From NCBI GenBank assembly GCA_045613345.1, contig JAZLAT010000005.1:203263-267262 (forward strand): a DNA stretch of 64,000 nucleotides, given 5' to 3'. Numbering within the stretch: the first letter of the stretch is position 1; each line of letters starts with the position of its first letter. This document shows, in pieces, positions 27,393 to 60,639 of the stretch. The stretch comes from Candidatus Enterousia sp. GTDB taxonomy: Bacteria; Pseudomonadota; Alphaproteobacteria; Rs-D84. A model generated the notes under the pieces. It did not search any database. It worked only from the letters and a program-made list of their open reading frames with translations, and was not told the origin of the DNA. A program made the translations under genes and the position numbers.

Positions 27393-27393
27393 A

Positions 27394-28134
27394 ATGAAGA
27401 AAACCGAAACAATTATTTCTTTGAATAAAATTTGCAAAAGTTTCCCATTGGAAATTGGTGGGCGACAACAGGTTTTATTTGATATAACTTTTGATATTGG
27501 TGCCGGCGAATTTGTCGCAATTATGGGACCATCGGGTTCGGGCAAATCCACATGTATGAATATCATTGGTGCGCTGGACACGCCAAGTTCCGGTGTATAC
27601 GCGTTGTACGGTCGCGATATTACAAATATGACCGCGGATGAACTTGCGATGGTTCGTAACGAATATATTGGGTTTGTTTTTCAAAACTTTAACCTTTTGC
27701 CCAAACGAAATGTGTTGGACAATGTTATGTTGCCATTGATGTATCGCGGAATGTCGCCTGATGACAGAATCCGCCGTTCACGTGAAATGCTGCATCGGGT
27801 CGGTCTTAGAGATTTTGAAACTTATTTGCCGACACAATTATCGGGCGGAATGAAACAACGTGTCGCAATTGCGCGCGCATTGGCGGGTGAACCCAAATTG
27901 ATACTGGCAGACGAACCAACTGGCGCATTGGATTCCAAAATGGGAAACGAAATTTTGGGATTCTTTCGCAAATTAAATAACGAAGAAGGAATTACAATCG
28001 TTATGATAACACACGAATTTGACACGGCACAATATGCAAAACGGCTGATACACATTTACGATGGTCGAATAAATTATGACGGGGTCGTCCCAGAAACCGA
28101 AGCAACACTTATCAAAAAGACGCAAAAGAAATGA
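27394..28134 (+). CDS. ABC transporter ATP-binding protein (MacB/LolD-type)
   Basis: Walker A GPSGSGKST, signature LSGGMKQRVAIARAL, Walker B ILADEPTGALD. The ATG at 27394 follows the MFP stop. Confidence 0.85.
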   Translation: MKKTETIISLNKICKSFPLEIGGRQQVLFDITFDIGAGEFVAIMGPSGSGKSTCMNIIGALDTPSSGVYALYGRDITNMTADELAMVRNEYIGFVFQNFNLLPKRNVLDNVMLPLMYRGMSPDDRIRRSREMLHRVGLRDFETYLPTQLSGGMKQRVAIARALAGEPKLILADEPTGALDSKMGNEILGFFRKLNNEEGITIVMITHEFDTAQYAKRLIHIYDGRINYDGVVPETEATLIKKTQKK

Positions 28135-41288: not shown

Positions 41289-44200
41289 ATGAATATATTT
41301 ACGAAAACTGTTGGAATTTTGTCTGTTTTTTGCGCGGTTGGGCCATGTATGGCGGCACTTCGTGCGGGTGGTACAAATACCCAAAACGCGACCGGCCGTG
41401 TTTCTGTTGCAACCACAACGGGCACATCGGCGGCGCGTCGTTTGCCGACATTGTTAAAGGGGACAACCACTACAACTGATACATCGTCTGATTCTTCTTT
41501 GTTGGGACGTGACGATTGTATTGAACAGTATGACGAATGTATCAAAGACGCAAATGTTTGCGGGGCAAATTTCGAAGAATGTACAACGGCGGAATTGTTC
41601 TATGCCAAAAAACCCCAATGCAATAATGTGTTGTTACAGTGCGGAACCGCGGGTATCAACGCCTTGTTCGGGACGTCAAATATCACAGATTTATCGGCGG
41701 ATAATATTGGTGTTTACCCCACAAGCGGAAGCTTGGTCGGGCAATATATCGAAGCCGGTCATTTGGCCAACTTGTATGATACGGGAACATGTGTTCGGCG
41801 TGTGACGTCATGTTTGCAAAAAGACAATGTATGCGGTTCTGAATTTGAACTTTGCACAAGTAACAATGAATTCAAAAAGCAACGCGTATTCTGTGAATCG
41901 AACATCGCGCGGTGTCAAGAAGATGGTATCCGTGAATTGTTCGGTTCGACCGACGCGTCATCTACCCCTGTTGAGGGCAGTCGCCTGCGTATATTGATTG
42001 ACGAAGGTGCAGATTTGGCGGCGGCAAACGCGGTTGACACATGTCATCGTATTGCTGACCAGTGCATATTGAATGCATGCAAGGCGAATCCGTACAAGTG
42101 CCTTGATGGCAGTAATGTATTAACCATAAACATTGTTGACGCAATAAACAGTGGGGCGTCTGTATCGGAAGAGCAAGCCAAAGGTGCGGCGGCTGTAACA
42201 TCCAAAGGAGAAGTAAATCGTTATATATACAGTCAATGCAGTGATACAATCGGGGGCAGCAAGTATTGCTATATGAATGCAAATGGTGGCAAAATTCCGA
42301 CGGCGTCACAATTGAAAGATGAATATATTCGTGACGAAGTTTTTGCAGATACTTATGAATGGGTAAAAAAGGCGGGTTTAGATGCAAAACTTAAAGAATT
42401 AAAAGAAAATTTTGATACCGAAGCCAAGGATAAATGTGCGGAAACACTTATGTCGTGCGCAATGAGTTCTTGTGGCGGTGGATTTGAAGCTGCATGCTAT
42501 GGAAAAGTGTACGGCAAAGACCCAAGTGGAACAGAATCAATAAATAAAACTGGTACGTATACAGAAATTCAACGCGGATGCGAAGCAATCGTGAATACTG
42601 ATGCAAATTGTCAGTATGCGGCGGCGGTGACAGATACGTATCAATATAATAACAAAGAAGTATTTACGACATTGTTCCCAAAATATACACAAGGTTACGA
42701 AGATCCAATTGGGGTTATTGCCAAGTTAAATGGTTCTTTGGCACAAACATATAATTCCGCGGCGATCGAGAGAATAGCGGACAGTTGCCGTGATAATGTG
42801 GAAGAGTGCATCATAAGTGAATGCGGTTCTGATTATAGTATGTGTTATCGTAATCGTTCGGATATTATGAGTGACACTTACGCGACAAGTGGAACCGATG
42901 TAACAAGCCTTAATACATTTGATGCAAGTATGAACAAGGTTGGTGGTGTTTTGGACTTTACAATTGTTCGTGGTTTGTGCATGGGTGATGTTGAAAAGTC
43001 GTCTGCATGTAATGAACACCTTAGAATCCAAGCGGCAAGAAATGATACCGGCAATGGTTGGGCCGGTGTGAAAAAAACCACGGTGGGCTCAACGTGGGCA
43101 GATACCGCCAAAGGGTATAGTTTGAAAGAAGTCGAATACAATGATGCTGATGACAAACTTTGTGTTGCGACCCCTGACGATTCTAAATGTTCGGTTGATG
43201 AAGCATCGGATCCGCACGAATGTGGCACGGTTGCAGATGGTTGCAAATATGATCAACCTATAACTTACAAAGATTATTTGTTGACGCTTAGTCGTGATAC
43301 GTTATTCCGCGAGGTTGTAGATAGAGTAGAAAAGAATGCCCAGTCGATGTATAACGCGCAACTGACCAAGGAACAAAATATGTGCCGTGCCGCGAACAAT
43401 GGTGGTGTTATGGGACGTAACGATATGGCCAGCACATATATGTGGGTGAAATTGAATTCACGCAAAGTTCCAAAGAATTACAGCGTCACTGGATTAAAGG
43501 CAAATGAATTCAAACCAAGTAACGATTTGTATGGTTCGTTCTGTCGTGCACGTGTCACGGTTCAGTCCGATGACCCAGATATACAAAACGCATTACAGAA
43601 AGGCGCGAATTGGTCCACGGCATACTTTGCGGTTGGTGATATGTTCACCTGCGGTTCCTGGATTCCACAAGATAAATTGGAAGAAATTGCGATAAATGTC
43701 GCATGCAAGAAAGCAAAAGCAGAAGGTAAAATAAAAGCCGATGCATCTTGTACTGGCGCCGATAGTGTGGGTATGACAACCGGTCAGAAATGGGCGACGG
43801 CGGCATCAGCAATCGGCTCGGCTGCGTTGGGTGGTGTCGGTATGGATTTGCTGCAAACCAAGACCGGATTGGGTGGGTTGGTGACAACTAAGAATTATAC
43901 GTCCAGCGAAGAAAATGCGATAAGTGCATCTATTGGTGCGGCAGAGGCCATTTACAATACAAATTGCACAGGAAATTCACCGAAATGTTCTGATGGCAGG
44001 AAGTGTTTTAGTGTTAGGACCGGCTTTAGTGGATCTAATATAACAAACACTTATACTTTCAATAAGGATAATGATAATTATCAGTATACGTGTGCAGATA
44101 TTAACAGTTATATAGATAAACAGTACAGTTTGTTAGGAATAAATAGAACGACAGGTGAGAGGTCTGGTAATTGGTGGCAGAAAAATGGCAAGCGTGCAAC

Positions 44201-44399
44201 TGTTGATGCGGTGGGCGCTATTGGACTTGGTATAACTGGTGGATTGGCGGTTGGTAAAAACATCAAGGCGGCAAATCGTCAAGAATTTACCAAAGATCAG
44301 CAAGAATTTATGAACCAAGTTGGCGACCATATCTATTGCTTTGTTGGTGCGGACGAAGCCGGAAAATACGGTGACCTGAACGAAATAAGTTTGGATTAA
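41289..44399 (+). CDS. Large cysteine-rich secreted protein of unknown function
   Basis: 1036 aa. Signal peptide MNIFTKTVGILSVFCAVGPCMA. Repeated C-x2-4-C modules (DDCIEQYDECIKDANVCGANFEECT; VTSCLQKDNVCGSEFELCT; ADQCILNACKANPYKCLD; CAETLMSCAMSSCGGGFEAACYG; DSCRDNVEECIISECGSDYSMCY). The C-terminal region is Gly-rich (AIGLGITGGLAVGKN). No TM segment lies beyond the signal peptide, and no family was recognised. Confidence 0.5.
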   Translation: MNIFTKTVGILSVFCAVGPCMAALRAGGTNTQNATGRVSVATTTGTSAARRLPTLLKGTTTTTDTSSDSSLLGRDDCIEQYDECIKDANVCGANFEECTTAELFYAKKPQCNNVLLQCGTAGINALFGTSNITDLSADNIGVYPTSGSLVGQYIEAGHLANLYDTGTCVRRVTSCLQKDNVCGSEFELCTSNNEFKKQRVFCESNIARCQEDGIRELFGSTDASSTPVEGSRLRILIDEGADLAAANAVDTCHRIADQCILNACKANPYKCLDGSNVLTINIVDAINSGASVSEEQAKGAAAVTSKGEVNRYIYSQCSDTIGGSKYCYMNANGGKIPTASQLKDEYIRDEVFADTYEWVKKAGLDAKLKELKENFDTEAKDKCAETLMSCAMSSCGGGFEAACYGKVYGKDPSGTESINKTGTYTEIQRGCEAIVNTDANCQYAAAVTDTYQYNNKEVFTTLFPKYTQGYEDPIGVIAKLNGSLAQTYNSAAIERIADSCRDNVEECIISECGSDYSMCYRNRSDIMSDTYATSGTDVTSLNTFDASMNKVGGVLDFTIVRGLCMGDVEKSSACNEHLRIQAARNDTGNGWAGVKKTTVGSTWADTAKGYSLKEVEYNDADDKLCVATPDDSKCSVDEASDPHECGTVADGCKYDQPITYKDYLLTLSRDTLFREVVDRVEKNAQSMYNAQLTKEQNMCRAANNGGVMGRNDMASTYMWVKLNSRKVPKNYSVTGLKANEFKPSNDLYGSFCRARVTVQSDDPDIQNALQKGANWSTAYFAVGDMFTCGSWIPQDKLEEIAINVACKKAKAEGKIKADASCTGADSVGMTTGQKWATAASAIGSAALGGVGMDLLQTKTGLGGLVTTKNYTSSEENAISASIGAAEAIYNTNCTGNSPKCSDGRKCFSVRTGFSGSNITNTYTFNKDNDNYQYTCADINSYIDKQYSLLGINRTTGERSGNWWQKNGKRATVDAVGAIGLGITGGLAVGKNIKAANRQEFTKDQQEFMNQVGDHIYCFVGADEAGKYGDLNEISLD

Positions 44400-48993: not shown

Positions 48994-49758
48994 ATGAACC
49001 TTAACAAACTTATTTTAACATCACTGTGCGCCATCATCACGGCGACCGCCGCATTCGCCGCCGGCGAAAACGTTGTCGCGTCAAAAAAATACACCGACGA
49101 CACGTTTCAGACGAAAATTCCGGCGGAGGTTTCAACGTTGTCGGACATAACCGGTAATGCCGGTGCATTGATTGGTGCAACCGATGCAAACGGTGTTGTA
49201 TCACAACGTTTAATAATCCCCGGATATAAAAGTGCCAGCGGAAACGGTGAATTGGGGGCCGCGATGTATGAACAAAGTGGTGACGGTACTGAGCTGTGGG
49301 GTGCTTGGGACGACTTTACTGTCGATTCATTTGCCGGAACGTTGGATGACATTTATCGTCAGTTGAATGATGCTAACGGTATGGGATATGAGCCGCAATA
49401 TTCCGTCCCCAGTATGGAATTGGCTTTGAATTGGGTGGGTGATATTGGTGATAAATTGAGTGATATTAACGGTCAATTGGTGGATATTGACGAATCAAAA
49501 CAACCAATGATTCCGGCGGGCACGGCGGGTAATGTGGTCACTTACACTGGCACCGCGGGTGTGGTTGGGTCAAATACTGTGGCATCCGCCGCAACATATA
49601 ATCAACAAACCGGTGCTTTGACCAACGGTTCGTCTATTGCCAATGTGACTTTGGTCGAAACCAAACAGAAAAAGAAAGTATGCGCCGGTTGGCCGGACTA
49701 TGTTGCCGTTGCCGACCGCACAGATGCAAATTGCTGGCTTTGGAGCCTTCCAGACTAA
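48994..49758 (+). CDS. Secreted protein, paralog B of the family at 33997
   Basis: MNLNKLILTSLCAIITATAAFAAGENVVASKKYTDDTFQTKI is nearly identical to paralog A. The C-terminus is ETKQKKKVCAGWPDYVAVADRTDANCWLWSLPD. Confidence 0.5.
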   Translation: MNLNKLILTSLCAIITATAAFAAGENVVASKKYTDDTFQTKIPAEVSTLSDITGNAGALIGATDANGVVSQRLIIPGYKSASGNGELGAAMYEQSGDGTELWGAWDDFTVDSFAGTLDDIYRQLNDANGMGYEPQYSVPSMELALNWVGDIGDKLSDINGQLVDIDESKQPMIPAGTAGNVVTYTGTAGVVGSNTVASAATYNQQTGALTNGSSIANVTLVETKQKKKVCAGWPDYVAVADRTDANCWLWSLPD

Positions 49759-50211: not shown

Positions 50212-52419
50212 TTATTCCGTCACCGTGGATTCGGTTTTTCCGGTTCCTTCTTCGGACGATTTTTCCTTTTTGGTTTCTTCGCCCGTCTTTTGGTCGATGT
50301 TTGCCATGCTCATACGTGTTTTACCACGTTTATCTGCACCTAAGTACTTTACAAACACGGAATCACCTTCGGATAATCCGGCATCTTCAATCTTGGCCAA
50401 ATGTTTGCCCGTGATATCAGAAATATGAACCATCGCTTCAAATCCGTTCAAAATACGCACGAACAAGCCAAAATCTTTGATACCTGTGATGACACCCGGA
50501 TATATTGCACCGACTTCGGGTTCGGCGACGATTTCTTTGATGCGTTTGATTGCAGCATTCGCAGAATCTTTATTAAACGCCAAAATCTTGACCGTTCCGT
50601 CATCTTCCAAATCAATGGTTGTGTCTGTTTCACGTGTCAAAGCCTGGATAACGACACCACCTTTACCAATCACATCGCGAATCTTGTCCGGATTAATTTT
50701 GATTGTATAAACCTGGGGTGCGTATTCAGAAACATGATCGCGCGGTTTGTCAATCGCAGATGTAATCTTGCCCAAGATATGCATACGCCCGTCTTTGGCC
50801 TGGGCCAGGGCGCGTTCCATAATTTCAAAAGTAATAGATGTGATTTTAATGTCCATCTGTAACGCGGTGATACCACGGTCGGTCCCGGTTACTTTGAAAT
50901 CCATATCGCCCAAATGATCTTCATCGCCCAAGATATCGGTCAAAATTGCGTAATCATCGCCTTCTTTGATAAGACCCATCGCAATACCCGCAACCGGACG
51001 CTTCATCGGGACACCACCGTCCATCAATGCCAAAGTTGCACCGCAAGTTGTCGCCATTGACGAAGAACCGTTCGATTCCAAAATGTCCGAACAAATGCGA
51101 ATCACATAGTCAAATTCTTTACGTGATGGCAACATCGGATGAACCGCACGCCACGCCAAATTACCATGACCAAGTTCACGACGGCCCGGCGCACGCAAGC
51201 CTTTGGCTTCGCCAACCGAAAAGCCCGGGAAATTATAGTTTAACATGAATTCGCGTTCTTCGGAACCGTCCAAAGTTTCCAACGGTAACGCATCTGTGCC
51301 GCCACCCAATGTCAAAGACACCAATGCTTGGGTTTCGCCACGTGTGAACAATGCAGAACCATGTGCGCGCGGTAACAATCCCAATTCTATCTCAATCGGA
51401 CGCACCGTTTTCGTGTCACGACCATCAATACGCGGACGTCCCGCCAAGATGTTGGAACGCATGATACGCGCAGTGATATTTTCAATGATTTCGTCTGCCG
51501 CAGATTCCAATGTTGATGTTGCAACAACTGTATCAGGGAACATTTCCGGAATCAGTGTTTTTGCCGCCGCATGAATTTCGCCTAACTTTTCCAAGCGCAC
51601 CAATTTTTCCTTGATACCCAAAGCCGATTCAATATCGCCCGCGAATTGTTCGAAACGTTTTTCCATTTCGATATATTCTGGACTTTTTTCTGGGGTTGCC
51701 CAACGTTCTTTGCCCGCAAGTTTAACCAAATCGTTGATTGCATTGATGACAACTTGTTGTGCTTCAAACCCGAATTTGACCGCGCCCAGTGTTGTTGCTT
51801 CGTCCAGTTCGCCGATTTCAGATTCAACCATCAAAACGCCGTCTTTGGTTGCGGCAACGACCAAGTCCATTTCAGAAGTTTCCACCGCTTTCTTGGACGG
51901 ATTCAAAATGTATTGTCCATCGCGATATCCCACACGCGCCGCACCAATCGGTCCATTAAATGGAACACCCGATAATGCCAACGCCGCCGAAGACGCAATC
52001 ATTGCCAAGATATCAGGCTGGTTCTTGCGGTCATACGAAAAAACTTGTGCGATAACTTGGACTTTGTTTTTGAAAGTTTCAGGAAACAACGGTCTTATTG
52101 GACGATCAATAAGGCGCGCAATCAATGTTTCGCCTAAACTTGCACGACCTTCGCGACGGTCACGTGACCCCGGAATACGCCCCGCAGACGCAAATTTTTC
52201 TTGGTAATCAACGGTCAACGGAAAGAAATCTTGACCTTCGACCGCGTTCTTTTCGGCGCACACGGTTGCCAACACCATTGTTTCGCCCATTGTCGCTAAT
52301 ACGGCACCGTTCGCCTGTTTTGCCATACGTCCTGTTTCAAGACGCAATTTTGTCCGACCATAATCAACTTCGACCACAACCGGATTATTCAGGTGCTTTA
52401 CACCATTTTCATTTGACAT
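50212..52419 (-). CDS. pnp: Polyribonucleotide nucleotidyltransferase (PNPase)
   Basis: 735 aa: two RNase PH domains, a KH domain and an S1 domain (GAIYPGVITGIKDFGLFVRILNGFEAMVHISDI). Confidence 0.9.
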   Translation of the reverse strand: MSNENGVKHLNNPVVVEVDYGRTKLRLETGRMAKQANGAVLATMGETMVLATVCAEKNAVEGQDFFPLTVDYQEKFASAGRIPGSRDRREGRASLGETLIARLIDRPIRPLFPETFKNKVQVIAQVFSYDRKNQPDILAMIASSAALALSGVPFNGPIGAARVGYRDGQYILNPSKKAVETSEMDLVVAATKDGVLMVESEIGELDEATTLGAVKFGFEAQQVVINAINDLVKLAGKERWATPEKSPEYIEMEKRFEQFAGDIESALGIKEKLVRLEKLGEIHAAAKTLIPEMFPDTVVATSTLESAADEIIENITARIMRSNILAGRPRIDGRDTKTVRPIEIELGLLPRAHGSALFTRGETQALVSLTLGGGTDALPLETLDGSEEREFMLNYNFPGFSVGEAKGLRAPGRRELGHGNLAWRAVHPMLPSRKEFDYVIRICSDILESNGSSSMATTCGATLALMDGGVPMKRPVAGIAMGLIKEGDDYAILTDILGDEDHLGDMDFKVTGTDRGITALQMDIKITSITFEIMERALAQAKDGRMHILGKITSAIDKPRDHVSEYAPQVYTIKINPDKIRDVIGKGGVVIQALTRETDTTIDLEDDGTVKILAFNKDSANAAIKRIKEIVAEPEVGAIYPGVITGIKDFGLFVRILNGFEAMVHISDITGKHLAKIEDAGLSEGDSVFVKYLGADKRGKTRMSMANIDQKTGEETKKEKSSEEGTGKTESTVTE

Positions 52420-52666
52420 AATTTTTCTCCATTTTATTGGTTAAATTTTCATTTCACCCCAGAGAAAAATCATTCGTTATTGCATTCTGGGAAATCACAA
52501 AAAATGCAAAAATGAATAATTCTTTCCCCAAGGGCAACGGTATTATACGAAATATTTATCCATTTGCAAATATTTTATACGAAACAAACTTTTTTATTGT
52601 GTGTTCGTATTTTGCCAATGTTGCAATAGATGTTATAATTTTTGCAAAAAAATCAAAGCATGGTTT

Positions 52667-52993
52667 TTAATTCAGATTCGTTAAAAACATTGGAAAGCTT
52701 GGTTCTTCTTCGTCCGAATTGTCCGAAGTATCAGTATTTTCCACCGTGGTTTCTGGTGCATGCGATTTATCATGCGGATCGCGGCTTGAATCAATCTTGC
52801 TTTGTTCTTCATTTACGATACGACCGTAATGTTCGGCGGCTTGCAAAAGGCGTTCGCGTGCTATTTCATCGGTGGCTTGGCGTGCCTGGTCTAAATATTG
52901 TTTGCGTTTCATGCGCCATTTATGACACCGCTGGATCATCATGCCAACGGCAGATTGGTTTTTTCCAGATGACTGATTTTTCTTACTTGGCAT
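52667..52993 (-). CDS. DUF4167-domain protein (conserved in alphaproteobacteria)
   Basis: RMKRKQYLDQARQATDEIARERLLQAAEHYGRI matches the DUF4167 N-terminal pattern. The tail is acidic. Confidence 0.5.
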   Translation of the reverse strand: MPSKKNQSSGKNQSAVGMMIQRCHKWRMKRKQYLDQARQATDEIARERLLQAAEHYGRIVNEEQSKIDSSRDPHDKSHAPETTVENTDTSDNSDEEEPSFPMFLTNLN

Positions 52994-53138
52994 ATCTCTA
53001 TCTTTTATTTTGGGGATAATCCGTGGGCAAATAATTTTGCTTTGCCCGTCTTAACTACAGGTTAAATGATAAAACATCTTAAAACCAATTGCAATATTTT
53101 TTTTATATTGCTATGCTTTCATTGTATATGGGGGGGAT

Positions 53139-54506
53139 GTGAAAGCAGAACGTGGTAATTTTTTATTGCAAGCACTTTTGTCTTTGACATTGGTATTCGC
53201 GTTTATACCTTTTTTTGCGCGGCGTCTGGCAACACGTGATATGGGGTCCCAGATGTATACCACAACCCGTCAAGTCGAAACGGTAAAGGCGGCGGCAAAA
53301 TCGTTTATTATTGAAAATGCTTATACATTTCCATATGGTCGTATTCGTATCACGGGTGACAAGTTCATAGACAGCCTTAGTCCATACGGATTGCCGATTG
53401 GCTTTTTGACACGGACCGCGATGGGACAAGATATAAGTTTAATTATCAATAATGATGATGGGGTTGTTTCTGCATTTGTGCGATTGAGCGGCGGAAATCT
53501 TGGGGTGATCCAGCGCGCAGAGTTGGCGCGACGCATTGGATTCTTTGCGATGTATAATCCTGATGACCCTGATGGTCATATTGATGTCGGTATCCAATTG
53601 GCAGATATGTATTCTGATGTTGTGCGAAGAAATGAAAAGGATTATGAATATTCGGGATTCTTGTCTGATTTGGATATGGGTGGCTTTCGATTTGATAATG
53701 CGGCAACAATATTGGCAGAAAATGCATCTTTTGATACCGCGGAAGTCACCACGCTTGGTATAAATGGAACAGAATCAGGCCGCAAAGAACGAAGCGGAAT
53801 TTTAAGTATTACTACAAATAAGACCGTGTTTCAAACAAGTGCAGGTGAATCCGCATTGTCTATAAGTCGCGGCGAATTAAAAGCCGATTCACTGGTCGTA
53901 AGAACGGTGTCTAAATATGGCAGCACCGGCAACATAACCGTTGGTGATGCCGCGGTTGACAGTTTTGATATGTCCACGGGGCACACCGGATTCGAAGGCC
54001 CAGAAAAATGGAATGTTGGCGGCAATATTGTCACAAGCCGAATCACTTTTAACGTTGAAAGATTAGATATAAGTTCTGTTATCAATACTACGCGCGGTCA
54101 AGATGTATATATCGATTCAGACACATTATCGTACAGCAGTGTCAGTGGTATAGATGCCGGCACAATTTATGCGTCCAATATTACATTGCGTGACCAAACT
54201 TCGGGTGGCTTAGTCCGTGGTGGCGATGGCGCGGCAGTATTGGATATAAGGCCTGCTGGGGCTTCGTTATTACCGGACGCATTGGTTGATAATATAAATA
54301 ATGGCGGTTTTACGATACTTGCACAACCCGAAAAAGACGACAGTTCAACCGTAACTTGCGAATCTGTGATTGGCGCGATTGGCGGTAAATATAATTCAAA
54401 ATCTTTGTCACAATATATAATATGCCAATATGTTTTTTGGCAAAGATTGGAACACAGAATAAATATCAAACAATGCCTTGTGGAGGGTGGCAGTGATTGC
54501 AGGTAA
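53139..54506 (+). CDS. Large TadE/pseudopilin-like protein 1, with a prepilin-type N-terminus
   Basis: The N-terminus AERG|NFLLQALLSLTLVFAFIPFF is a class-III-signal-like segment with Gln at +5. Confidence 0.45.
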   Translation: MKAERGNFLLQALLSLTLVFAFIPFFARRLATRDMGSQMYTTTRQVETVKAAAKSFIIENAYTFPYGRIRITGDKFIDSLSPYGLPIGFLTRTAMGQDISLIINNDDGVVSAFVRLSGGNLGVIQRAELARRIGFFAMYNPDDPDGHIDVGIQLADMYSDVVRRNEKDYEYSGFLSDLDMGGFRFDNAATILAENASFDTAEVTTLGINGTESGRKERSGILSITTNKTVFQTSAGESALSISRGELKADSLVVRTVSKYGSTGNITVGDAAVDSFDMSTGHTGFEGPEKWNVGGNIVTSRITFNVERLDISSVINTTRGQDVYIDSDTLSYSSVSGIDAGTIYASNITLRDQTSGGLVRGGDGAAVLDIRPAGASLLPDALVDNINNGGFTILAQPEKDDSSTVTCESVIGAIGGKYNSKSLSQYIICQYVFWQRLEHRINIKQCLVEGGSDCR

Positions 54507-54507
54507 A

Positions 54508-55698
54508 ATGAAATTTTTATCACGCGCACATAAATCCGAAATCATCGCACAACGTGGTGGTGGATTGGTTGAAATATTGCTTGCGATGGTAATTATTTCT
54601 GTTGCTGCGCCATTTACTTATTCAATGATAGCCGAATCCACGCATGCGATACACAACATGGCAATTGCGAATGATATTATCAGTTTAAAATCAGGTATAT
54701 TGAATTTTGTGCGATTAAATCAAGACCTTTGGCCGACCGAGGTTCAGATAAAAATGTCTGATGATGAATTAGCAGAGTTTTCAGATTCCATATCATCAGG
54801 TTTTATTGATAAATACACGGTTCATGGCGGGACAATTATCGATGTATATTTGGCTTTTGATTTGGATGCGACACCAAAGCGTATCGCTCAAATTGCACAA
54901 AACATTGGTGATGATGCCGCGGTTGTTGCCGACGATGGAATCGCATACAGTGATTCTTGGGCGGTAACCGCCCCAGATTTTAAGCCCGGAAATTTGATTT
55001 ATAAAATAAGTCGTGATCTTTCGGATCGTGATACTTCGCGATTCTTGCATCGTGGTGCCTCTGGGACAGACAATTTGAATACAATGGAACGTGATTTGAA
55101 TATGGGCGGATACGATGTTTATAATGTTGGAAATTTGGAAGGAAAATCTGTTCGTGTTCGCACAATTGATACCACGTTTGTGAATTCAGAAACCATAGAT
55201 GCACAAAATGTTTACTTTTCGTCTGGGGCGAATATGAATGCCGATAAAGTTAAAATCGGAACAGTTCGTGTTTCGGGTGATACAAACGGATTCAGAAATA
55301 TCGAAGCAAAAAAATTAAACGGTTCCGCATACAGCATAAATGGACGTATAATCACAGATCGCGCTACGATAAACAATTCGATAAATATTGGACGCGATTT
55401 AACATTAAAATCTTCGTCTGTGCGCACCGTCAGTGGTTTTGTGGGTTTGGCGGTCGGTTCTGTGTATACGCCATATCTTTCCGCGGGTGAAATAATGTTC
55501 TATGATAATTTTGGTTTAACTGTGTCGGGCGAATTGATGATATCTTCAAATCCACCAATAAAGTTGGGTTCGTGGAGTTTTCCATCAACAACACCGCCGT
55601 CTTTTTCGTCATTGAATCTTACGCGTGCGATGATGCCATCAATGCCAAATCCAAAAGAATTTGATAAAATTATGGGGTCTGATTGGAAAACAAAATGA
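54508..55698 (+). CDS. Large TadE/pseudopilin-like protein 2
   Basis: MKFLSRAHKSEIIAQRG|GGLVEILLAMVIISVAAPF has Glu at +5 after the putative cleavage Gly. The ATG lies 2 nt after the upstream stop (TAAAATG). The tracked ORF begins at 54478. Confidence 0.45.
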   Translation: MKFLSRAHKSEIIAQRGGGLVEILLAMVIISVAAPFTYSMIAESTHAIHNMAIANDIISLKSGILNFVRLNQDLWPTEVQIKMSDDELAEFSDSISSGFIDKYTVHGGTIIDVYLAFDLDATPKRIAQIAQNIGDDAAVVADDGIAYSDSWAVTAPDFKPGNLIYKISRDLSDRDTSRFLHRGASGTDNLNTMERDLNMGGYDVYNVGNLEGKSVRVRTIDTTFVNSETIDAQNVYFSSGANMNADKVKIGTVRVSGDTNGFRNIEAKKLNGSAYSINGRIITDRATINNSINIGRDLTLKSSSVRTVSGFVGLAVGSVYTPYLSAGEIMFYDNFGLTVSGELMISSNPPIKLGSWSFPSTTPPSFSSLNLTRAMMPSMPNPKEFDKIMGSDWKTK

Positions 55699-57008
55699 AA
55701 ACATACAAAAAAATCTTTGCGCATAATTTTGCAGAACGTGGAACGGTGCTGATTGAATTTTTATTGACTATCGCATTGGCGGGGACATTGGTACCATTTA
55801 TATACAGTTATCATACTCGTGCCGTCACACGTGCAGAAAATGTTAAAATTACGCGTCAAATGGAACGTATTCAATCAGTATTGGAAAGATACATTGTGGA
55901 AAACAAAGAACGTATGATGACAACCGTCGGTCGCAGCATAATCAAAATAGGCTTGTCTGATTTAGTTGAATATGGTTTAGATTCTGATTTTGCAAACAAT
56001 GCCTCCGATAAATACCAAGTCAGAATATTAAAATCTGTGGATGCGGGCAATCAATCTTCTTTGCAAGGCGTGATTGTTTTAAATGATTCTGAGATAACCG
56101 CGTTACGCACGCGACAAATTGTGTCTATGGGTGATGACAAGTTGGGTTTTGTCGATGGCAATCGTGCTTATGGTGGATTCGGTACGTGGCGTGCAAGTAT
56201 CGCAGATTTAGGAATTGATAGTACATCGGGTATTGTTCGTACCACAGGCATAAATCGCGACAGCGCATTGTATTTATGGCGTGTGCCTTCGTCAAATGTT
56301 GCCGATGCAACAATGATGTCTGCATTAAACCTTGGGGGGCGCGACATTAAAAACGCATCTTTTGTAAATACGGGCGGATTAAAAATAGATGAAATTTTTA
56401 ATGCAAAAAAGATTGTCACAAATGATTTAGTCTTTCAAAACAGAACCACTATTGATTCCGATTATAAAACACAAACTGCGATAGTTTCCGGGACTTTATC
56501 GGGCGATTCGAAAAATGTCAATGTGAATGGAACTTTCTTTTTGAATGATTTGGGAAAATTTTCTGCATTCACAGCAGACAATTTATGGGTAAATACTTTA
56601 AATCTAAGTGGTTTATCTGTTAAATCTGGTGGTGCGGCGGTATTACGTACGGGTGGCTTGTTGGACATGACCGAAGGTCGCATAACGGCAATGTTTGTGA
56701 CGGTCGGTTTTACTGGGTCAATAACATCGCGTTTAAATGTCAAAAATAAAATAATCGATTCAATAAATTCTGATTACTATTGGGACGTCCAATCTCGTGT
56801 TGCAAATTTATCAGATATATCATCACCAACTTTATCAGATATGGCGACACGGGCATTACGCCGTGAATCTGTGTCTGGAAGCGTTGCAACACAATTATTC
56901 AATGCGGTTGCCACAAACAAGAATGCAACTGTGGCGGATTTTATGAATACGATAAATGAAATACAAACCAAGGTTAAGGCAAAATATCATATGTTGAATT
57001 TGCAATAA
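55695..57008 (+). CDS. Large TadE/pseudopilin-like protein 3
   Basis: MKTYKKIFAHNFAERG|TVLIEFLLTIALAGTLVPF is a textbook prepilin signal with E+5. The start overlaps the upstream stop (ATGA). Confidence 0.45.
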   Translation: MKTYKKIFAHNFAERGTVLIEFLLTIALAGTLVPFIYSYHTRAVTRAENVKITRQMERIQSVLERYIVENKERMMTTVGRSIIKIGLSDLVEYGLDSDFANNASDKYQVRILKSVDAGNQSSLQGVIVLNDSEITALRTRQIVSMGDDKLGFVDGNRAYGGFGTWRASIADLGIDSTSGIVRTTGINRDSALYLWRVPSSNVADATMMSALNLGGRDIKNASFVNTGGLKIDEIFNAKKIVTNDLVFQNRTTIDSDYKTQTAIVSGTLSGDSKNVNVNGTFFLNDLGKFSAFTADNLWVNTLNLSGLSVKSGGAAVLRTGGLLDMTEGRITAMFVTVGFTGSITSRLNVKNKIIDSINSDYYWDVQSRVANLSDISSPTLSDMATRALRRESVSGSVATQLFNAVATNKNATVADFMNTINEIQTKVKAKYHMLNLQ

Positions 57009-57045
57009 TTTGTGCTATAAGAAAAATATATCAAAGGAAACAGAT

Positions 57046-57564
57046 ATGAAAATTAAATGCGATGTTTGCAAAACAGAATATTCTATGGACAATGCGCCAA
57101 ACGGTCGTGTGCGTTGCACGGTATGCGGAAATGTATGGGCCGTGCCGCGTGCGAATCGTCGAAGCGGACTTATGGTTTTTATCGCATCAATTTGCGCATT
57201 GTTGGCGGCAACAATATTTGCGGTTGTGGTTATTGTTACTTCGCGTCACGATGACCCAAATAAAAGACCGCTTATTGCAACAATAACAAGTATTGAAAAT
57301 ATAAATCAAGACGGTAAAGATGCTTTGGTGGTCAACGGCACAATAACAAATCGTTCTGACGATATATACGGGTTGCCAGATTTGGTGATAATTTTGCATG
57401 ACGCAAACGGTGCACCAATCGCCCATCAAAAATTTATGCCAACGGCAACATTGTTAGATGCAGGACAATCTGTGGGATTCAGTCATACATTAACAACTAA
57501 TGTATCGGGTGTAAAAAAAGTTTCGGTTGAATTATTGGAATCTGAAAAACAAGGGACAAAATGA
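57046..57564 (+). CDS. Zinc-ribbon (MJ0042-type) + TM + DUF3426 protein
   Basis: MKIKCDVCKTEYSMDNAPNGRVRCTVCGNVW (C-x2-C...C-x2-C), then a TM helix (LMVFIASICALLAATIFAVVVIV), then a beta-rich C-terminal domain. RBS AAAGGAAACAGAT ATG. Confidence 0.6.
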   Translation: MKIKCDVCKTEYSMDNAPNGRVRCTVCGNVWAVPRANRRSGLMVFIASICALLAATIFAVVVIVTSRHDDPNKRPLIATITSIENINQDGKDALVVNGTITNRSDDIYGLPDLVIILHDANGAPIAHQKFMPTATLLDAGQSVGFSHTLTTNVSGVKKVSVELLESEKQGTK

Positions 57565-58040
57565 TGAAAAAACTTCTTGTGTTATTCGGTTTGGTTGCTC
57601 CGTTATATGCGATTGCCACAGATACACCACAAACACCGCCGGCACCGGTGCCCGTTTCACGCGTCAGTATCTTTTCAACAACGACTGATTGGGCGGCATT
57701 GACCGGATTGCCATTGCGTCAGTTTATTGGTGATTTTTCATGGACGAATTCTGATGTTACGCGTGGTCTTGTTTTATACTATCTTGACGCATTTCCATGC
57801 TATGGCGAAGCCGACAGTGTTCGCATATGGCTTGGTCCAAATAAACAATCAACCGGAACATTACGGTTGGTGTGCGTGCATGCACCGACAGAGATAAGTT
57901 TTACTTGGCGTAACGCCACCCGTGATGCAGATCAAGCACAAAGTACGGGTATATTGAAATGTCCTGTGACCGGTGATTATGAATTAAAAATCGATATATC
58001 AAAATGCAAACGCGGTCCCGATTGGAAGGAATATAAATAA
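57561..58040 (+). CDS. Secreted protein of unknown function
   Basis: Signal peptide MMKKLLVLFGLVAPLYAIA. Four Cys. The start overlaps the upstream stop (ATGATG). Confidence 0.4.
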   Translation: MMKKLLVLFGLVAPLYAIATDTPQTPPAPVPVSRVSIFSTTTDWAALTGLPLRQFIGDFSWTNSDVTRGLVLYYLDAFPCYGEADSVRIWLGPNKQSTGTLRLVCVHAPTEISFTWRNATRDADQAQSTGILKCPVTGDYELKIDISKCKRGPDWKEYK

Positions 58041-58042
58041 CA

Positions 58043-58999
58043 ATGTCTGATACGCGTGAACTTATTGTTAAACCCGAAAGTGCCGGTGTGCGCATTGATA
58101 AATTCTTGGTTGGTGAATTACCAGAATTTTCACGCAGCGAAATTCAAAAATTCATTGTCACACGCAATAATGCTTCGGTAAAATTTTCTGATAAAGTAAA
58201 ATGTGGCGATAATATATCTGTGGAAATACCCGCACAAGAAACAGATGTTGCAACCGATAATATTTCAAACGAACTGGATTTAGAAGTGTTATACCAAGAC
58301 GATGATATAATCGTTATAAATAAACCGCGTGGCGTTGTTATGTATCCGTCTGCGGGAAACAAGACGGGAACTTTGGTTCAAAATGTTTTATCAATAACAC
58401 ATCTGTCTGGGTTGGGTGGCGCAACGCGCCCCGGGGTTGTGCATCGTTTAGATAAAGACACAAGTGGCATCGTTGTTTTTGCGAAATCTGATGCCGCGTA
58501 TCGCGGATTGGTGCATACTTTTTCTACACACAATTTAACACGGAAATATATCGCCTTTGTTTGGGGTGTGCCAAATTGGACCGGGGCAGATATAACCGGT
58601 AATATCGCGCGTTCGTCCCGCAATCGTCAAAAAATGACCATGGTTAAAACCGGGGGACGCCCCGCACACACGGTTGTTGATGTTATTGACGCATGGACTC
58701 GCGTTGGGGTTTCGGAATTTCGTTGCACTTTGATGACCGGTCGAACACATCAAATTCGTGTGCATTTATCGGCACATGGTTTTCCTGTTTTGTGTGATCC
58801 GGTATATGGTCATGGTGCGTCGCGATACGGTTCGGTCAAAGATCCCGAGTTATTAGAATTTATCAAGACGCATAATGGGCAAATGCTTCATGCGGCAGTA
58901 TTGGAATTTGCTCATCCGGTGACGGGCAAACAAATGAAATTCAAAACGGAATTGCCCGACGATATGCAAGAATTACAATGTATACTAAATGAAGCCTAG
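58043..58999 (+). CDS. rluD: 23S rRNA pseudouridine synthase, RluA family (RluD-like)
   Basis: S4 domain, then HRLDKDTSGIVVFAKSDAAYRGLVHTF...KYIAFVWG. Confidence 0.8.
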   Translation: MSDTRELIVKPESAGVRIDKFLVGELPEFSRSEIQKFIVTRNNASVKFSDKVKCGDNISVEIPAQETDVATDNISNELDLEVLYQDDDIIVINKPRGVVMYPSAGNKTGTLVQNVLSITHLSGLGGATRPGVVHRLDKDTSGIVVFAKSDAAYRGLVHTFSTHNLTRKYIAFVWGVPNWTGADITGNIARSSRNRQKMTMVKTGGRPAHTVVDVIDAWTRVGVSEFRCTLMTGRTHQIRVHLSAHGFPVLCDPVYGHGASRYGSVKDPELLEFIKTHNGQMLHAAVLEFAHPVTGKQMKFKTELPDDMQELQCILNEA

Positions 59000-60639
59000 C
59001 CGCGCAAGCGACGCAATACAACCATGATTCCTGCCGGTGTTATGCCGGGTATTCTTTGTAAATCCGCAACCGTAGCGGGACGAGTTCGATTTAATTTCTC
59101 ACGCAATTCTAATGTCAAGCCCGGCATATTATCATAGTTAAAATCGGAGGGAATCTTTATCATCTTGTCACGATTATATGATTCAATTTCACGGTGGTTA
59201 CGTGCAATATATCCGGCATAGAATTTGTCGTTTTCAGAGATTTCTATGGATTTTTTATCCATTTTGTTCAAAAAAGCCGGCGATTCGATTAAACCCAAAT
59301 CAACACCAATTTGCCCAAGTCGTGCAATTGCATTATCCGCACGCAGGCTCAAACGATATTCCGCGCGCGATGTGAACATACGATAAGGCTCGTCCACACC
59401 CAATGTTGTTATATCATCAATCATAACACCAATCATTGAATTCGTTCGGTTCAGTTCAAGATATTTCGCATCCAACGCAAATGCCGCGGCATTTGCCCCC
59501 GCAACCAAACCTTGGGATGCGGCTTCTTCATATCCCGATGTGCCGTTGATTTGTCCTGCAAAGAACAATCCCGGTGCATTTCGTGACATAAGGTGTGAAT
59601 CCAATGCCCGTGCATCAATCGCATCATATTCGATTGCATATCCGTATCGTGCGATTCGCGCATTTTGCAGACCCGGAATCGTTCGAATCCATTGGTCTTG
59701 GACGGTGCGACCAAAACTTGTTGAAATACCGTTTGGATAAATTAAATCGCTGTGTAATCCTTCGGGTTCCAAGAATACATGGTGCGAAGTGTGTTCTGGA
59801 AAACGCATAACTTTATCTTCCAAAGACGGACAATACCTCGGTCCTGTACCAACTATGTCACCGTTATACATTGGCGCATCACCGATATTTTTACGAATTA
59901 TTTCGTGTGTTCGTTCGGTGGTGTGTGTGATATAACAAACTGCAACATTATTATCCACCGCGCAACCGTCGGAAAACCAATCGTGCGGATTATCAGGATG
60001 TTGTTCTTCACACACCGAAAAATCAATGCTGTCACGATATATGCGTGCCGGTGTTCCAGTTTTAAGTCGCATTATATCAAAACCAAAATCGTGCAACCTT
60101 TGGGAAATTGCTGTGTCTGGCGATTGGTATTCGCCACTGTCCATAATTCGGCCGGACGGAATTTTTTCCGCGCCCATGGTCACAAGACCTTGCAAGAAGG
60201 TACCTGTGGTAAAAACCAATGCTTTTCCGATGTATGCACCATTTATGACTTTTTTATCTAAATCAATTGAGTGAACCGTTTCGAATGTGATGGTTAAATT
60301 ATCATATTCACGCAAAATTTGCGATACTGCATTATGATACAATTCACGATCAATTTGTGCGCGCAGCGCGCGTGTCGCCGGCCCATGCGATGCATTCAGT
60401 GTGCGAAAGTGAATACCCGCCATATCCGCCGCGCGTGGCATAACACCCGCAAATGCGTCCATTTCTGCGACCATTTGCGATTTGCCGGGACCACCGATTG
60501 ACGGATTGCAAGACATCGCACCCAAATCAGATTCACGCATTGTTATCAACAATGTCCGCGCACCACGGCGCGCAGATGCCGCCGCGGCTTCGACCCCGGC
60601 ATGCCCCCCACCAATAACAATGACATCAAAACTGTGCAT
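58996..60639 (-). CDS. mnmG: tRNA uridine-5-carboxymethylaminomethyl modification enzyme MnmG (GidA)
   Basis: FDVIVIGGGHAGVEAAAASARRGARTLLIT...GAMSCNPSIGGPGKSQMVAEMDAFAGVM...FRTLNASHGPATRALRAQIDR. At 547 aa it is shorter than typical. Confidence 0.8.
   Translation of the reverse strand: MHSFDVIVIGGGHAGVEAAAASARRGARTLLITMRESDLGAMSCNPSIGGPGKSQMVAEMDAFAGVMPRAADMAGIHFRTLNASHGPATRALRAQIDRELYHNAVSQILREYDNLTITFETVHSIDLDKKVINGAYIGKALVFTTGTFLQGLVTMGAEKIPSGRIMDSGEYQSPDTAISQRLHDFGFDIMRLKTGTPARIYRDSIDFSVCEEQHPDNPHDWFSDGCAVDNNVAVCYITHTTERTHEIIRKNIGDAPMYNGDIVGTGPRYCPSLEDKVMRFPEHTSHHVFLEPEGLHSDLIYPNGISTSFGRTVQDQWIRTIPGLQNARIARYGYAIEYDAIDARALDSHLMSRNAPGLFFAGQINGTSGYEEAASQGLVAGANAAAFALDAKYLELNRTNSMIGVMIDDITTLGVDEPYRMFTSRAEYRLSLRADNAIARLGQIGVDLGLIESPAFLNKMDKKSIEISENDKFYAGYIARNHREIESYNRDKMIKIPSDFNYDNMPGLTLELREKLNRTRPATVADLQRIPGITPAGIMVVLRRLRG

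Follow-up and report, generated by a model that had tools for sequence, protein, structure and literature searches.

Among the type IVb pili, the thin pili of IncI plasmids (R64, TP114) and of Salmonella Typhi carry PilV (PF04917, Shufflon_N), a minor pilin and tip adhesin of about 400-470 aa with a class III signal, which in IncI liquid mating stabilizes contacts. TadE and TadF, minor pilins of the Tad (type IVc) pilus, have about 190 aa. In general, the genes for minor pilins and those for the machinery that assembles them are often unlinked. CofB of the ETEC pilus CFA/III and TcpB of the Vibrio cholerae pilus TCP are large type IVb minor pilins that work as trimers at the tip, each a homotrimer of a single gene product, and initiate assembly (PMC7248040). 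The T2SS (GspI-GspJ-GspK) and type IVa pili (PilI-J-K, with PilY1) use three different, co-encoded minor pilins; in such complexes a subunit devoid of Glu5 forms the cap, and the complex starts assembly (PMC10191384). Another factor associated with a type IV filament is ZitP of Caulobacter crescentus and Rickettsia, which has a zinc finger, a transmembrane (TM) segment and a DUF3426 domain. ZitP binds PopZ, recruits CpaM and is required for pilus biogenesis (PMC5182063, PMC5182065). In Caulobacter, the DUF3426 domain is needed for biogenesis of the Tad pilus (PMC5182063), and roles have been assigned to the zinc-finger residues, including a Trp (W35) needed for PopZ binding (PMC5182065).

Here we compare with these systems a run of six closely spaced genes (53139-58999, + strand) in a 64-kb stretch of DNA (the window) from Candidatus Enterousia sp., order Rs-D84 (GCA_045613345.1, contig JAZLAT010000005.1). 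Ca. Enterousia is an alphaproteobacterium prevalent in the guts of animals and humans; it is uncultured and probably partner-dependent. The six genes encode three paralogous proteins with prepilin signals, a DUF3426 protein, a Sec-secreted protein and RluD; they are listed here with two other genes of the window, a slash marking the predicted cleavage site.

53139..54506, + strand: ORF1, GTG start, 455 aa, PilV-like giant pilin, 6-aa leader (MKAERG/NFLLQ)
54508..55698, + strand: ORF2, 396 aa, PilV-like giant pilin, 17-aa leader (...AQRG/GGLVE)
55695..57008, + strand: ORF3, 437 aa, PilV-like giant pilin, 16-aa leader (...AERG/TVLIEF)
57046..57564, + strand: ORF4, 172 aa, ZitP-like bitopic protein, N-terminus MKIKCDVC
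57561..58040, + strand: ORF5, 159 aa, Sec-type signal peptide (MMKKLLVLFGLVAPLYAIA/TD), 4 Cys, putatively periplasmic
58043..58999, + strand: rluD, RluA-family 23S rRNA pseudouridine synthase, last gene of the operon
52667..52993, - strand: small DUF4167-like gene, divergent from ORF1 (PF13763, E=6.6e-5, below the cut-off)
41289..44399, + strand: secreted Cys-rich protein, 1036 aa, 46 Cys

The likely start codons are ATG 54508 for ORF2, over a TTG at 54478 that would give 406 aa; ATG 55695 for ORF3, over an upstream alternative at 55683, giving 437 aa, as in the database proteins; and ATG 57046 for ORF4, over 57010. The ORFs sit where an earlier note on this DNA had placed them. It described all five genes upstream of rluD as joined by overlapping stop and start codons, which is correct for ORF2/ORF3 and ORF4/ORF5 (both ATGA, the ORF5 start lying over the ORF4 stop), whereas ORF1/ORF2 is a TAAAATG junction with a 1-nt gap and ORF3 is followed by a 37-nt spacer carrying an AAGGA Shine-Dalgarno sequence. 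The gap between the ORF5 stop and rluD is 2 nt rather than the 3 nt given there. The size range of 406-455 aa has to be widened as well, ORF2 probably having 396 aa, and the assignment to the size class of minor pilins or tip adhesins stands.

The six-gene order is identical in all 83 of 83 related loci, mostly from Ca. Enterousia or unnamed alphaproteobacterial MAGs of order Rs-D84, and both the DUF3426 zinc-ribbon gene and the gene for the secreted protein are indeed part of one conserved operon with rluD (TIGR00005, E=3.8e-71; PF00849, E=2.2e-28). ORF5, which reached the threshold of no Pfam or NCBIfam family, is kept with ORF4 and rluD in each of these loci, and at L088, a distant locus, as well. 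Distant lineages (L085, L088/89 and L090) retain only the trio; L085 has it without a ZitP-like gene, so the link with ZitP may be one of synteny only. In species-representative genomes, a gene of the operon occurs in 223 stretches. Throughout, the operon is flanked by core housekeeping genes, and its surroundings (DUF4167, pnp, the ZitP-like gene, rluD, mnmG) recur in the 83 loci. The DUF4167-like gene lies upstream of ORF1 in nearly all loci and is a conserved neighbour. An orthologue of the 1036-aa Cys-rich protein is encoded directly downstream of rluD in 73 loci (tblastn), which suggests that the cluster may have a seventh member that has been displaced in the window. Its C-terminal ~47 aa are better conserved than the body of the protein. 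As a gene for a secreted protein of ~1000 aa adjoining the cluster in relatives, it is reminiscent of PilY1/PilC, whose genes adjoin those of minor pilins; unlike PilY1, the protein is Cys-rich, and it gave no Pfam or NCBIfam match and no detectable PilY1 domain.

The class III signals and the hydrophobic helices ending in P-F that the earlier note had recognized are present in ORF1-3. Each protein has a short, basic leader, Gly at -1 and a hydrophobic helix (alpha1-N) some 20 residues long (MKAERG/NFLLQALLSLTLVFAFIPFF in ORF1, ...QRG/GGLVEILLAMVIISVAAPF in ORF2 and ...AERG/TVLIEFLLTIALAGTLVPF in ORF3), and the helices terminate in IPFF, APFT and VPFI, respectively. When all six frames of the window were searched for G-x4-[EQ] with 15 uncharged hydrophobic residues behind it, ORF1-3 came up, together with two internal false positives, in MreB and a secreted protein. 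When the trio was surveyed in about 80 species, Gly(-1) was invariant in every orthologue whose motif was found, and mature position +5 was Glu in 80/80 orthologues of ORF2 and 83/83 of ORF3. In ORF1 the same position is Gln in 76/76 orthologues, a fixed feature, overlooked in the earlier note, and not noise. As it is never Glu in these orthologues, ORF1 is a candidate cap subunit. The very distant trio of L088 has the same Q/E/E pattern; the ORF1-like proteins of L085 and L090 carry E at +5, and the cap signature is accordingly not universal. The C-terminus of ORF1 also has four nearly invariant Cys residues.

All three proteins have the lollipop fold of type IV pilins, a long N-terminal helix on an antiparallel beta-sheet head, together with a beta-solenoid similar to polymer-forming bactofilin; ORF3 is made up of a pilin domain, the beta-solenoid and a C-terminal helical domain. 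Foldseek gave no significant match in the PDB. The profile of the ORF3 family aligned with solved type IV pilins at E=3e-4, with G-1 and E5 matched; against PilA-N, G-1 falls in register. The three proteins are paralogues; ORF2 is similar to ORF3 (BLASTP E=6e-11 over 264 aa) and to the ORF3 family (hhalign 98.8%, E=1.4e-16). The type IV pilin identity proposed earlier for all three is supported.

Which pilin family they belong to is a separate matter. On their own, ORF1-3 reached the threshold of no Pfam or NCBIfam pilin model; for N_methyl (PF07963)/TIGR02532 only ORF2 matched, and its 13 bits fall short of the cut-offs, 21.2 and 16.3. The earlier TadE/TadF/TadG label is not borne out by Pfam, where TadE, Tad, T2SSG/I/J/K and N_methyl gave nothing at or above threshold. 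TadE (PF07811) and Tad (PF13400) had no match even at E<=1, and as regards GspI/J/K there was no T2SSI/J/K match and no gsp gene in the window. For PF04917 itself, the direct HMM matched none of ORF1-3 at E<=1, and of 54 family members it picked up just 2 at E<=0.01, the better one with 2.8e-11. A whole-library profile search retrieved only 256 relatives, bona fide Shufflon_N proteins among them (Pfam E 4e-69 to 3e-25). Comparison by hhalign with four Shufflon_N-positive, PilV-type proteins gave probabilities of 99.1% for ORF3 (280 columns), 98.5% for ORF2 (E=2.9e-15, 272 columns) and 94.5% for ORF1 (193 columns). Judged by these profile-profile comparisons, the nearest family of the trio is PilV/Shufflon_N of type IVb pili, a distant kinship. 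In the databases the family members are all labeled "hypothetical protein", apart from stray labels of PilE and PulG, the latter given by JGI to one distant cluster member.

PilV and the trio share, besides size and signal, a homologous constant region that includes, where the beta-solenoid begins, the motif LY.R.P....D..M...L(D/N)(M/L)GG.DI.N, and by analogy an adhesin role is plausible for the trio. The differences are also clear: where PilV is one gene, three paralogues that have diverged lie side by side on the chromosome, none matching PF04917 directly and one without Glu5, linked to a ZitP-like gene and rluD and not adjacent to the pilL-pilU assembly genes. As for a shufflon, the region 53000-58100 has only short, chance-level repeats, and Pfam found no recombinase among the window ORFs scanned. 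CofB and TcpB resemble the trio as multi-domain giant minor pilins, with a pilin domain followed by beta-rich domains and a trimeric tip logic (PMC7248040), yet no sequence similarity to them was detected and the C-terminal domains differ. GspI-J-K and PilI-J-K share with the trio a set of three different subunits with one lacking Glu5, but there is no T2SSI/J/K or PilC/PilY1 match, and all three subunits of the trio are large.

The earlier note did not recognize that ORF4, by its sequence, is built like ZitP, an alphaproteobacterial polarity and pilus-biogenesis factor, and carries the key residues of that protein. A cytoplasmic CxxC-x15-CxxC zinc ribbon, one TM-like stretch and a periplasmic DUF3426/FxLYD domain are predicted; DUF3426 (Pfam) scored 28.2 bits against a cut-off of 27.7, FxLYD (NCBIfam) 26.1 against 23, and the MJ0042_CXXC zinc ribbon was also above its cut-off. 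The best PDB sequence match, at E=0.023, was 2nb9; this chain of 49 aa, entered as "uncharacterized protein", we take to be the ZitP zinc finger. Its numbering fits the C5/C8/C28/C31/W35 of that domain (PMC5182065), and aligned to these are C5, C8, C24, C27 and W31 of ORF4, invariant in 81 orthologues. R21/R23 align with R24/R27 of ZitP, in a basic patch that is not strictly conserved. ORF4 is smaller than ZitP (172 versus 311 aa), its Cys spacing is x15 instead of x19, and its gene, unlike that of ZitP, lies within a pilin operon.

The earlier note's statement that the window has no pilus machinery is borne out. Neither a motif scan nor Pfam analysis of most large ORFs turned up a gene for a prepilin peptidase, an extension ATPase, a platform, a secretin or a small major pilin in the 64 kb, and Pfam returned only housekeeping genes (pnp, mnmG, fabG/fabD, infB, mreBC, accC, mutS, truB, parAB, MacAB-TolC and tRNA synthetases). 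Across 89 related loci (1.7 Mb), a narrow-regex scan reaching 10 kb to either side of the operon found neither of its two motifs, the ATPase Walker A and the peptidase GxGDxK; secretin, platform and pilin genes are outside its coverage. Neither flp, cpaA/tadV and cpaC-F nor GspD/E/F and ComEC were found in the window or these loci, and ORF1-3 are not encoded in a type IVb pil operon (pilN secretin, pilQ ATPase, pilR platform, pilS pilin, pilU peptidase). The composition, as had been claimed, is that of no described pilus locus. Genomes of order Rs-D84 are <1 Mb, and the only genome survey of the order reports type IV pili for another lineage, not for Rs-D84 (PMC12306168).

Our judgment tips, if only slightly, towards a heterotrimeric PilV-type tip or initiation module of three large type IV pilins, positioned by ZitP and serving adhesion. 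Each of ORF1-3 would be of PilV (type IVb minor pilin/adhesin) lineage and consist of a signal peptide of class III, an alpha/beta pilin head, a beta-solenoid and a further domain at the C-terminus. A prepilin peptidase whose gene lies elsewhere would cut after the invariant Gly, and the products would form a staggered heterotrimer, the heteromeric counterpart of the CofB/TcpB homotrimer (type IVb) and of the GspI-J-K / PilI-J-K trimer, with ORF1, on account of its constant +5 Gln, as the cap, the Glu5-bearing ORF2 and ORF3 beneath it, and the beta-solenoids and C-terminal domains as the exposed adhesive part. The ZitP-like ORF4, zinc finger in the cytoplasm and DUF3426 in the periplasm, would position or stabilize the complex at a defined site, probably the pole via PopZ, and ORF5 would be a periplasmic accessory protein. 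The class III motif, invariant G(-1), the Q/E/E pattern, the PilV profile link, paralogy, synteny and the ZitP residues argue for this reading. Counting against it are the lack of machinery in the window or, for two motifs, the 89 loci, the lack of reported type IV pili in Rs-D84 (PMC12306168), the failure to reach any pilin threshold together with the Foldseek null, and the exceptions L085/L090 (E at +5) and L085 (no ZitP-like gene).

Several of these same observations would suit exapted PilV-derived "orphan" pilins, an explanation we consider unlikely though a real contender. Here the N-terminal helix would anchor the proteins in the inner membrane, no filament motor would be needed, and the beta-solenoids would form a periplasmic or envelope-spanning scaffold, organized by the ZitP-like protein, for envelope organization or cell-cell contact. 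The permanent place of the operon amid housekeeping genes and before rluD, its presence in 223 stretches, the bactofilin-like solenoid, the absence of nearby machinery genes (window; two-motif scan of 89 loci) and the small genomes without reported type IV pili (PMC12306168) are all consistent with this. A plain anchor, however, leaves unexplained why Gly(-1) and a charged Glu5 within a membrane helix are strictly kept down to about 20% identity, and why just one paralogue has a fixed Q. It is also common for minor pilins and their machinery to be encoded at unlinked places. A bolder reading, which we hold to be rather doubtful, is a minimal or machinery-independent organelle in which the three PilV-derived giant pilins make up a polar attachment device with ZitP-PopZ-type positioning in genomes of <1 Mb that have no canonical type IV pilus apparatus; the ~1000-aa Cys-rich secreted protein may be part of it.

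That the trio provides the minor pseudopilins for T2SS-like secretion or competence-type DNA uptake, as a short periplasmic piston rather than an adhesive surface fibre, strikes us as improbable. Metabolically dependent bacteria would gain from uptake systems, a three-member set with one Glu5-less subunit recalls GspI-J-K (PMC10191384), and there is the one PulG label. Yet proteins of 400-455 aa with a large beta-solenoid are much larger than GspI/J or the ComG minor pilins, there was no match to the T2SSI/J/K or ComG families, GspD/E/F and ComEC were not found nearby, and the nearest relatives are PilV adhesins. The original assignment to TadE/TadF/TadG of a Tad pilus, for all that the host is alphaproteobacterial, the G/xxxxEF of ORF3 resembles TadE and ZitP is a Tad-pilus factor in Caulobacter (PMC5182063), is very hard to sustain against the silence of PF07811 and PF13400 at E<=1, a size and three-paralogue structure unlike TadE/F, the profile placement of all three with Shufflon_N/PilV, and the failure to find flp, cpaA/tadV or cpaC-F in the window or loci.

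For a genome of <1 Mb, the ~3.9 kb given to three giant pilin-like proteins, in one operon with a polarity-factor gene, is striking, and since the arrangement is kept in 83/83 loci despite the small genome, the locus is a prime candidate for an attachment organelle. Its likely role would be to attach these gut bacteria, whose genomes are reduced and which probably depend on partners, to other cells or to surfaces. The trio carries the PilV family beyond the conjugation pili of plasmids into the core genes of chromosomes and, as proposed, would be a naturally occurring heterotrimeric form of the type IVb tip, and ORF4 provides a second, independent genomic link of ZitP with type IV filament proteins. 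If the machinery-independent device were the true reading, it would fit an epibiotic, partner-dependent lifestyle and perhaps steady contacts for a type IV secretion system.

Six genes follow one another on the forward strand at 53139-58999, the first three encoding large prepilin-like proteins (the trio).

Genes of the operon, in window coordinates
53139-54506, + strand: ORF1, prepilin-like, GTG start, 455 aa
54508-55698, + strand: ORF2, prepilin-like, ATG start most likely, 396 aa (406 aa if the mechanically called TTG at 54478 is the start)
55695-57008, + strand: ORF3, prepilin-like, ATG start, 437 aa
57046-57564, + strand: ORF4, zinc-ribbon membrane protein, ATG start, 172 aa
57561-58040, + strand: ORF5, small secreted protein, 159 aa
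58043-58999, + strand: rluD, last of the six genes

For ORF3, 437 aa is the length common to all database orthologues. The earlier note had all five genes before rluD joined by overlapping codons; read from the DNA, this holds for ORF2/ORF3 and ORF4/ORF5 (both ATGA) and fails for ORF1/ORF2 (TAAAATG, a 1-nt gap) and for ORF3/ORF4, where a 37-nt spacer contains an AAGGA ribosome-binding site. The gap between ORF5 and rluD is 2 nt. A scan of 52400-59300 for sigma-70 promoters and terminators found nothing beyond shuffled expectation. A scan of species-representative genomes matched 223 stretches. Our locus comparison rests on 80 of these 223, which belong to MAGs of rumen and gut origin that go under 'Candidatus Enterousia' or unnamed Alphaproteobacteria, and 83 related loci were examined for order and motifs. 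The order ORF1-ORF2-ORF3-ORF4-ORF5-rluD is found in 83/83, with identities to the window proteins of 47-83% for ORF1-5, 58-81% for rluD (the lowest value being a cut fragment) and 83-89% for pnp over full-length matches. Divergent from ORF1 lies a gene (52667-52993, - strand) whose small, basic product matches DUF4167 below threshold, a layout kept in nearly all 83 loci.

Translation of ORF1, ORF2 and ORF3 reproduces exactly the three prepilin-like N-termini and P-F-ending helices described in the earlier note: MKAERG/NFLLQ, ...QRG/GGLVE and ...AERG/TVLIEF, respectively (slashes mark the predicted cleavage site), each followed by an uncharged hydrophobic stretch with P-F at its end. A six-frame pattern scan of the whole window matched only these three proteins, plus two internal false positives. 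Across the 83 loci, the Gly preceding the cleavage site is kept wherever the motif could be located, and residue 5 of the mature protein is Glu in 80/80 ORF2 and 83/83 ORF3 sequences and Gln in 76/76 ORF1 sequences. This Q/E/E pattern recurs, with gene order unchanged, in a trio only ~20% identical (locus L088); in the distant trios of L085 and L090, residue 5 is Glu in all three members. Subunits that undergo cleavage and docking into a type IV filament are marked by this combination, a charged Glu within the membrane helix with an invariant Gly just ahead of it, and we infer that the trio is cleaved at this Gly.

ORF1, ORF2 and ORF3 are paralogues of one another. BLASTP aligns ORF2 with ORF3 over 264 aa (E=6e-11) and ORF1 with ORF3 over the N-terminal 147 aa (E=2e-5), and at the profile level the ORF3 family matches those of ORF1 (99.1%, E=1.8e-18) and ORF2 (98.8%). 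The TadE/TadG-type label proposed in the earlier note did not survive: none of the PF07811, Tad, T2SS and N_methyl HMMs scored above threshold. Searches of ORF1-3 against Pfam and NCBIfam yielded only a sub-threshold N_methyl/TIGR02532 signal on ORF2, and the TadE, Tad (TadG N-terminus) and T2SS pseudopilin models gave no signal at a cut-off of E<=1. When 1.84 billion representative proteins were searched with a profile built from 17 ORF3 orthologues, just 256 relatives came out at E<=1e-3. Among the matches listed, the full-length relatives inspected carry a G-x4-E motif at their N-termini, and the weaker relatives include proteins with strong Shufflon_N matches (PF04917, Pfam E 4e-69 to 3e-25). 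Shufflon_N models the constant part of PilV, which serves type IVb thin pili as minor pilin and adhesin. Profile-profile comparison with PilV-type proteins supports all three families: ORF3 (99.1%, E=1e-18, 280 columns), ORF2 (98.5%, E=2.9e-15, 272 columns) and ORF1 (94.5%, E=8e-8, 193 columns). By eye, PilV proteins have DRLYR..VPG.PDLNQMQTAIDMG.NDINNA where ORF3 has ALYLWRVPSSNVADATMMSALNLGGRDIKNA. Among solved type IV pilins, the ORF3-family profile matches Geobacter PilA-N at E=3e-4, the alignment bringing the cleavage Gly and Glu5 into register, with lower scores for GspG and PilA. ORF1-3 are distant relatives within the PilV lineage. They differ from known PilV in failing direct membership tests for PF04917, and both a shufflon and a type IVb operon context are absent around them; a search for shufflon-like repeats at the operon (53000-58100) returned short chance matches only. 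Public databases annotate family members as 'hypothetical protein', stray PilE/PulG labels aside.

More distant lineages vary the arrangement. L087, with an ORF3 ~43% identical, keeps it complete. In L088/L089, four opposite-strand genes (acyltransferase, DUF218, FtsX-type and ABC-type) follow the trio and precede the zinc-ribbon gene, a 155-aa gene and rluD. In L085, the trio is followed by efp and the zinc-ribbon gene is absent, and L090 has three giant versions in a row (1203, 1150 and 1092 aa), the first of which matches Shufflon_N directly. From these arrangements, the trio is the core unit of the cluster. The giant genes (L090 10001-20383, + strand) belong to a 47% GC lineage, have KGG.L.E N-termini in all three products and adjoin leuS and squalene/phytoene synthase genes; single relatives of ~1000 aa occur near flagellar genes (e.g., L086 10001-13255). 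Given these larger forms, the PilV-like family has members of 400-1200 aa spread over several, probably alphaproteobacterial, lineages. In one relative, L087, a VirD4/TraG-type T4SS coupling protein (1-187, - strand) is encoded ~10 kb upstream of the operon; PilV adhesins help T4SS-mediated mating of IncI plasmids.

An AlphaFold2 model of ORF3 (54-sequence alignment, mean pLDDT 76) has an N-terminal helix of 56 residues (14-69), an alpha/beta head (81-183, pLDDT 85-91), a beta-solenoid (221-371, pLDDT 60-70) and three C-terminal helices (378-433, pLDDT 85-89). Foldseek comparison of the model with the PDB returned nothing at E<0.5.

ORF4 combines a zinc ribbon on the cytoplasmic side (CxxC-x15-CxxC), a single TM segment and, in the periplasm, a DUF3426/FxLYD domain. 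The PDB sequence closest to ORF4 (E=0.023) is that of the 49-aa chain 2nb9, whose deposited name is 'uncharacterized protein'; as its numbering agrees with the published C5/C8/C28/C31/W35, we take this chain for the zinc finger of Caulobacter ZitP, solved by NMR. All 81 orthologues keep the four Cys and the Trp that corresponds to W35, and the alignment places R21 and R23 opposite R24 and R27 of ZitP. ZitP W35 is needed for PopZ binding (PMC5182065), and the periplasmic DUF3426 domain of Caulobacter ZitP is needed for Tad pilus biogenesis via CpaM (PMC5182063). On the strength of its architecture, the 2nb9 match, the invariant residues and this link of ZitP to pili, ORF4 is best read as a short ZitP orthologue. 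ORF5, which always accompanies ORF4 and rluD in the loci examined, carries a Sec signal peptide; two of its four Cys are invariant across an 81-sequence alignment, and it matches no Pfam or NCBIfam family.

In 73 related loci, a secreted Cys-rich protein of ~1000 aa is encoded directly downstream of rluD, so that the conserved cluster in relatives comprises seven genes. In the window, this gene is shifted ~9 kb upstream instead of following rluD.

The Cys-rich protein and orthologues
Window 41289-44399, + strand: secreted Cys-rich protein, 1036 aa, 46 Cys
L026 13517-16774: orthologue
L001 13370-16504: orthologue
L087 13372-16308: orthologue

Against Pfam and NCBIfam the 1036-aa protein has no match, nor did it show a PilY1 domain. 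Conservation is higher over its last ~47 residues than over its body (62-81% vs about 50%). The genes for the large tip adhesins PilC/PilY1 accompany those for minor pilins, and the adhesins attach via a C-terminal strand (PMC13533445); by analogy, and speculatively, the 1036-aa protein may be a PilY1-like partner of the trio. We rejected a homologous relationship between the 1036-aa protein and secreted, Cys-rich proteins encoded close to distant trios, since BLASTP with L088_725 and L086_579 gave E of at least 0.014. Two other secreted proteins in the window, of 373 aa (33997-35118, + strand) and 254 aa (48994-49758, + strand), are paralogues: their first 43 residues, a signal peptide plus GENVVASKKYTDDTFQTKI, are 93% identical, their middles diverge and are partly repetitive, and about 60% identity returns over the C-terminal ~110 residues, which end ...KKKVCAGWPD.VAVADRTDANCWLW..PD. 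The pair matches no family and looks like a variable surface-protein family.

Minor-pilin tip complexes are capped by one subunit without Glu5 (PMC10191384). The best-supported reading, which we hold to be somewhat better than an even bet, is that the trio forms a heteromeric PilV-type tip or initiation complex. ORF1, with Gln5, would cap the complex and ORF2 and ORF3, with Glu5, would lie beneath it, the beta-solenoid and C-terminal domains providing an exposed adhesive end. The ZitP-like ORF4 would place or stabilise the complex at a pole, and ORF5 may be a periplasmic helper. The analysis establishes homology, motifs, fold and synteny; trimer formation, placement at the tip and adhesion are, like cleavage, inferred. 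Such a trimer would parallel GspI-J-K and PilI-J-K, as well as CofB/TcpB of type IVb pili, although the latter is a homotrimer.

The main weakness of the tip-complex reading is the unseen machinery. Pfam scans of most large ORFs in the window gave housekeeping functions only and no pilus machinery, upholding the earlier note on this point. Regex searches for two motifs, the filament ATPase Walker A and the A24 prepilin peptidase GxGDxK, had 0 matches in the window and 89 loci (1.7 Mb), and the contexts of L085, L087, L088/L089 and L090 contain no pilus assembly genes. Neither a peptidase nor a motor, platform, secretin or major pilin turned up in the window or in the loci around the operon. 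The principal rival dispenses with a filament motor: the trio would be exapted pilins in a ZitP-organised envelope or contact structure. We give this perhaps one chance in a few; a plain membrane anchor would leave the kept Gly, the Glu5 of ORF2 and ORF3 and the fixed Gln of ORF1 unaccounted for. A pseudopilus for secretion or DNA uptake, for which the GspI-J-K parallel could speak, is unlikely, and a Tad reading highly improbable even with the Caulobacter ZitP-Tad link: ORF1-3 do not class as TadE/F/G or Gsp minor pseudopilins, as no TadE, Tad or T2SS model matches and the profiles point to PilV.

Candidatus Enterousia belongs to the order Rs-D84, whose genomes are described in a genome survey as mostly <1 Mb and without flagella, respiration and much of glycolysis, and whose members are thought to be partner-dependent; the lineage for which that survey reports type IV pilus genes is a different one, not Rs-D84 (PMC12306168). 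The window also encodes a four-gene efflux operon (24877-29348, + strand; TolC-like, HlyD-type adaptor, MacB-type ABC ATPase and permease), kept in a very small genome. In the Enterousia/Rs-D84 literature we found nothing specific on pili. Nor did we find a paper describing minimal genomes in which three chromosomal PilV-like paralogues with a fixed Q/E/E pattern are combined with rluD, a ZitP orthologue and a gene for a small secreted protein, in agreement with the earlier remark that the locus matches no known pilus locus. With ORF4 read as ZitP, its place within a pilin operon would independently tie ZitP to type IV filament proteins a second time.
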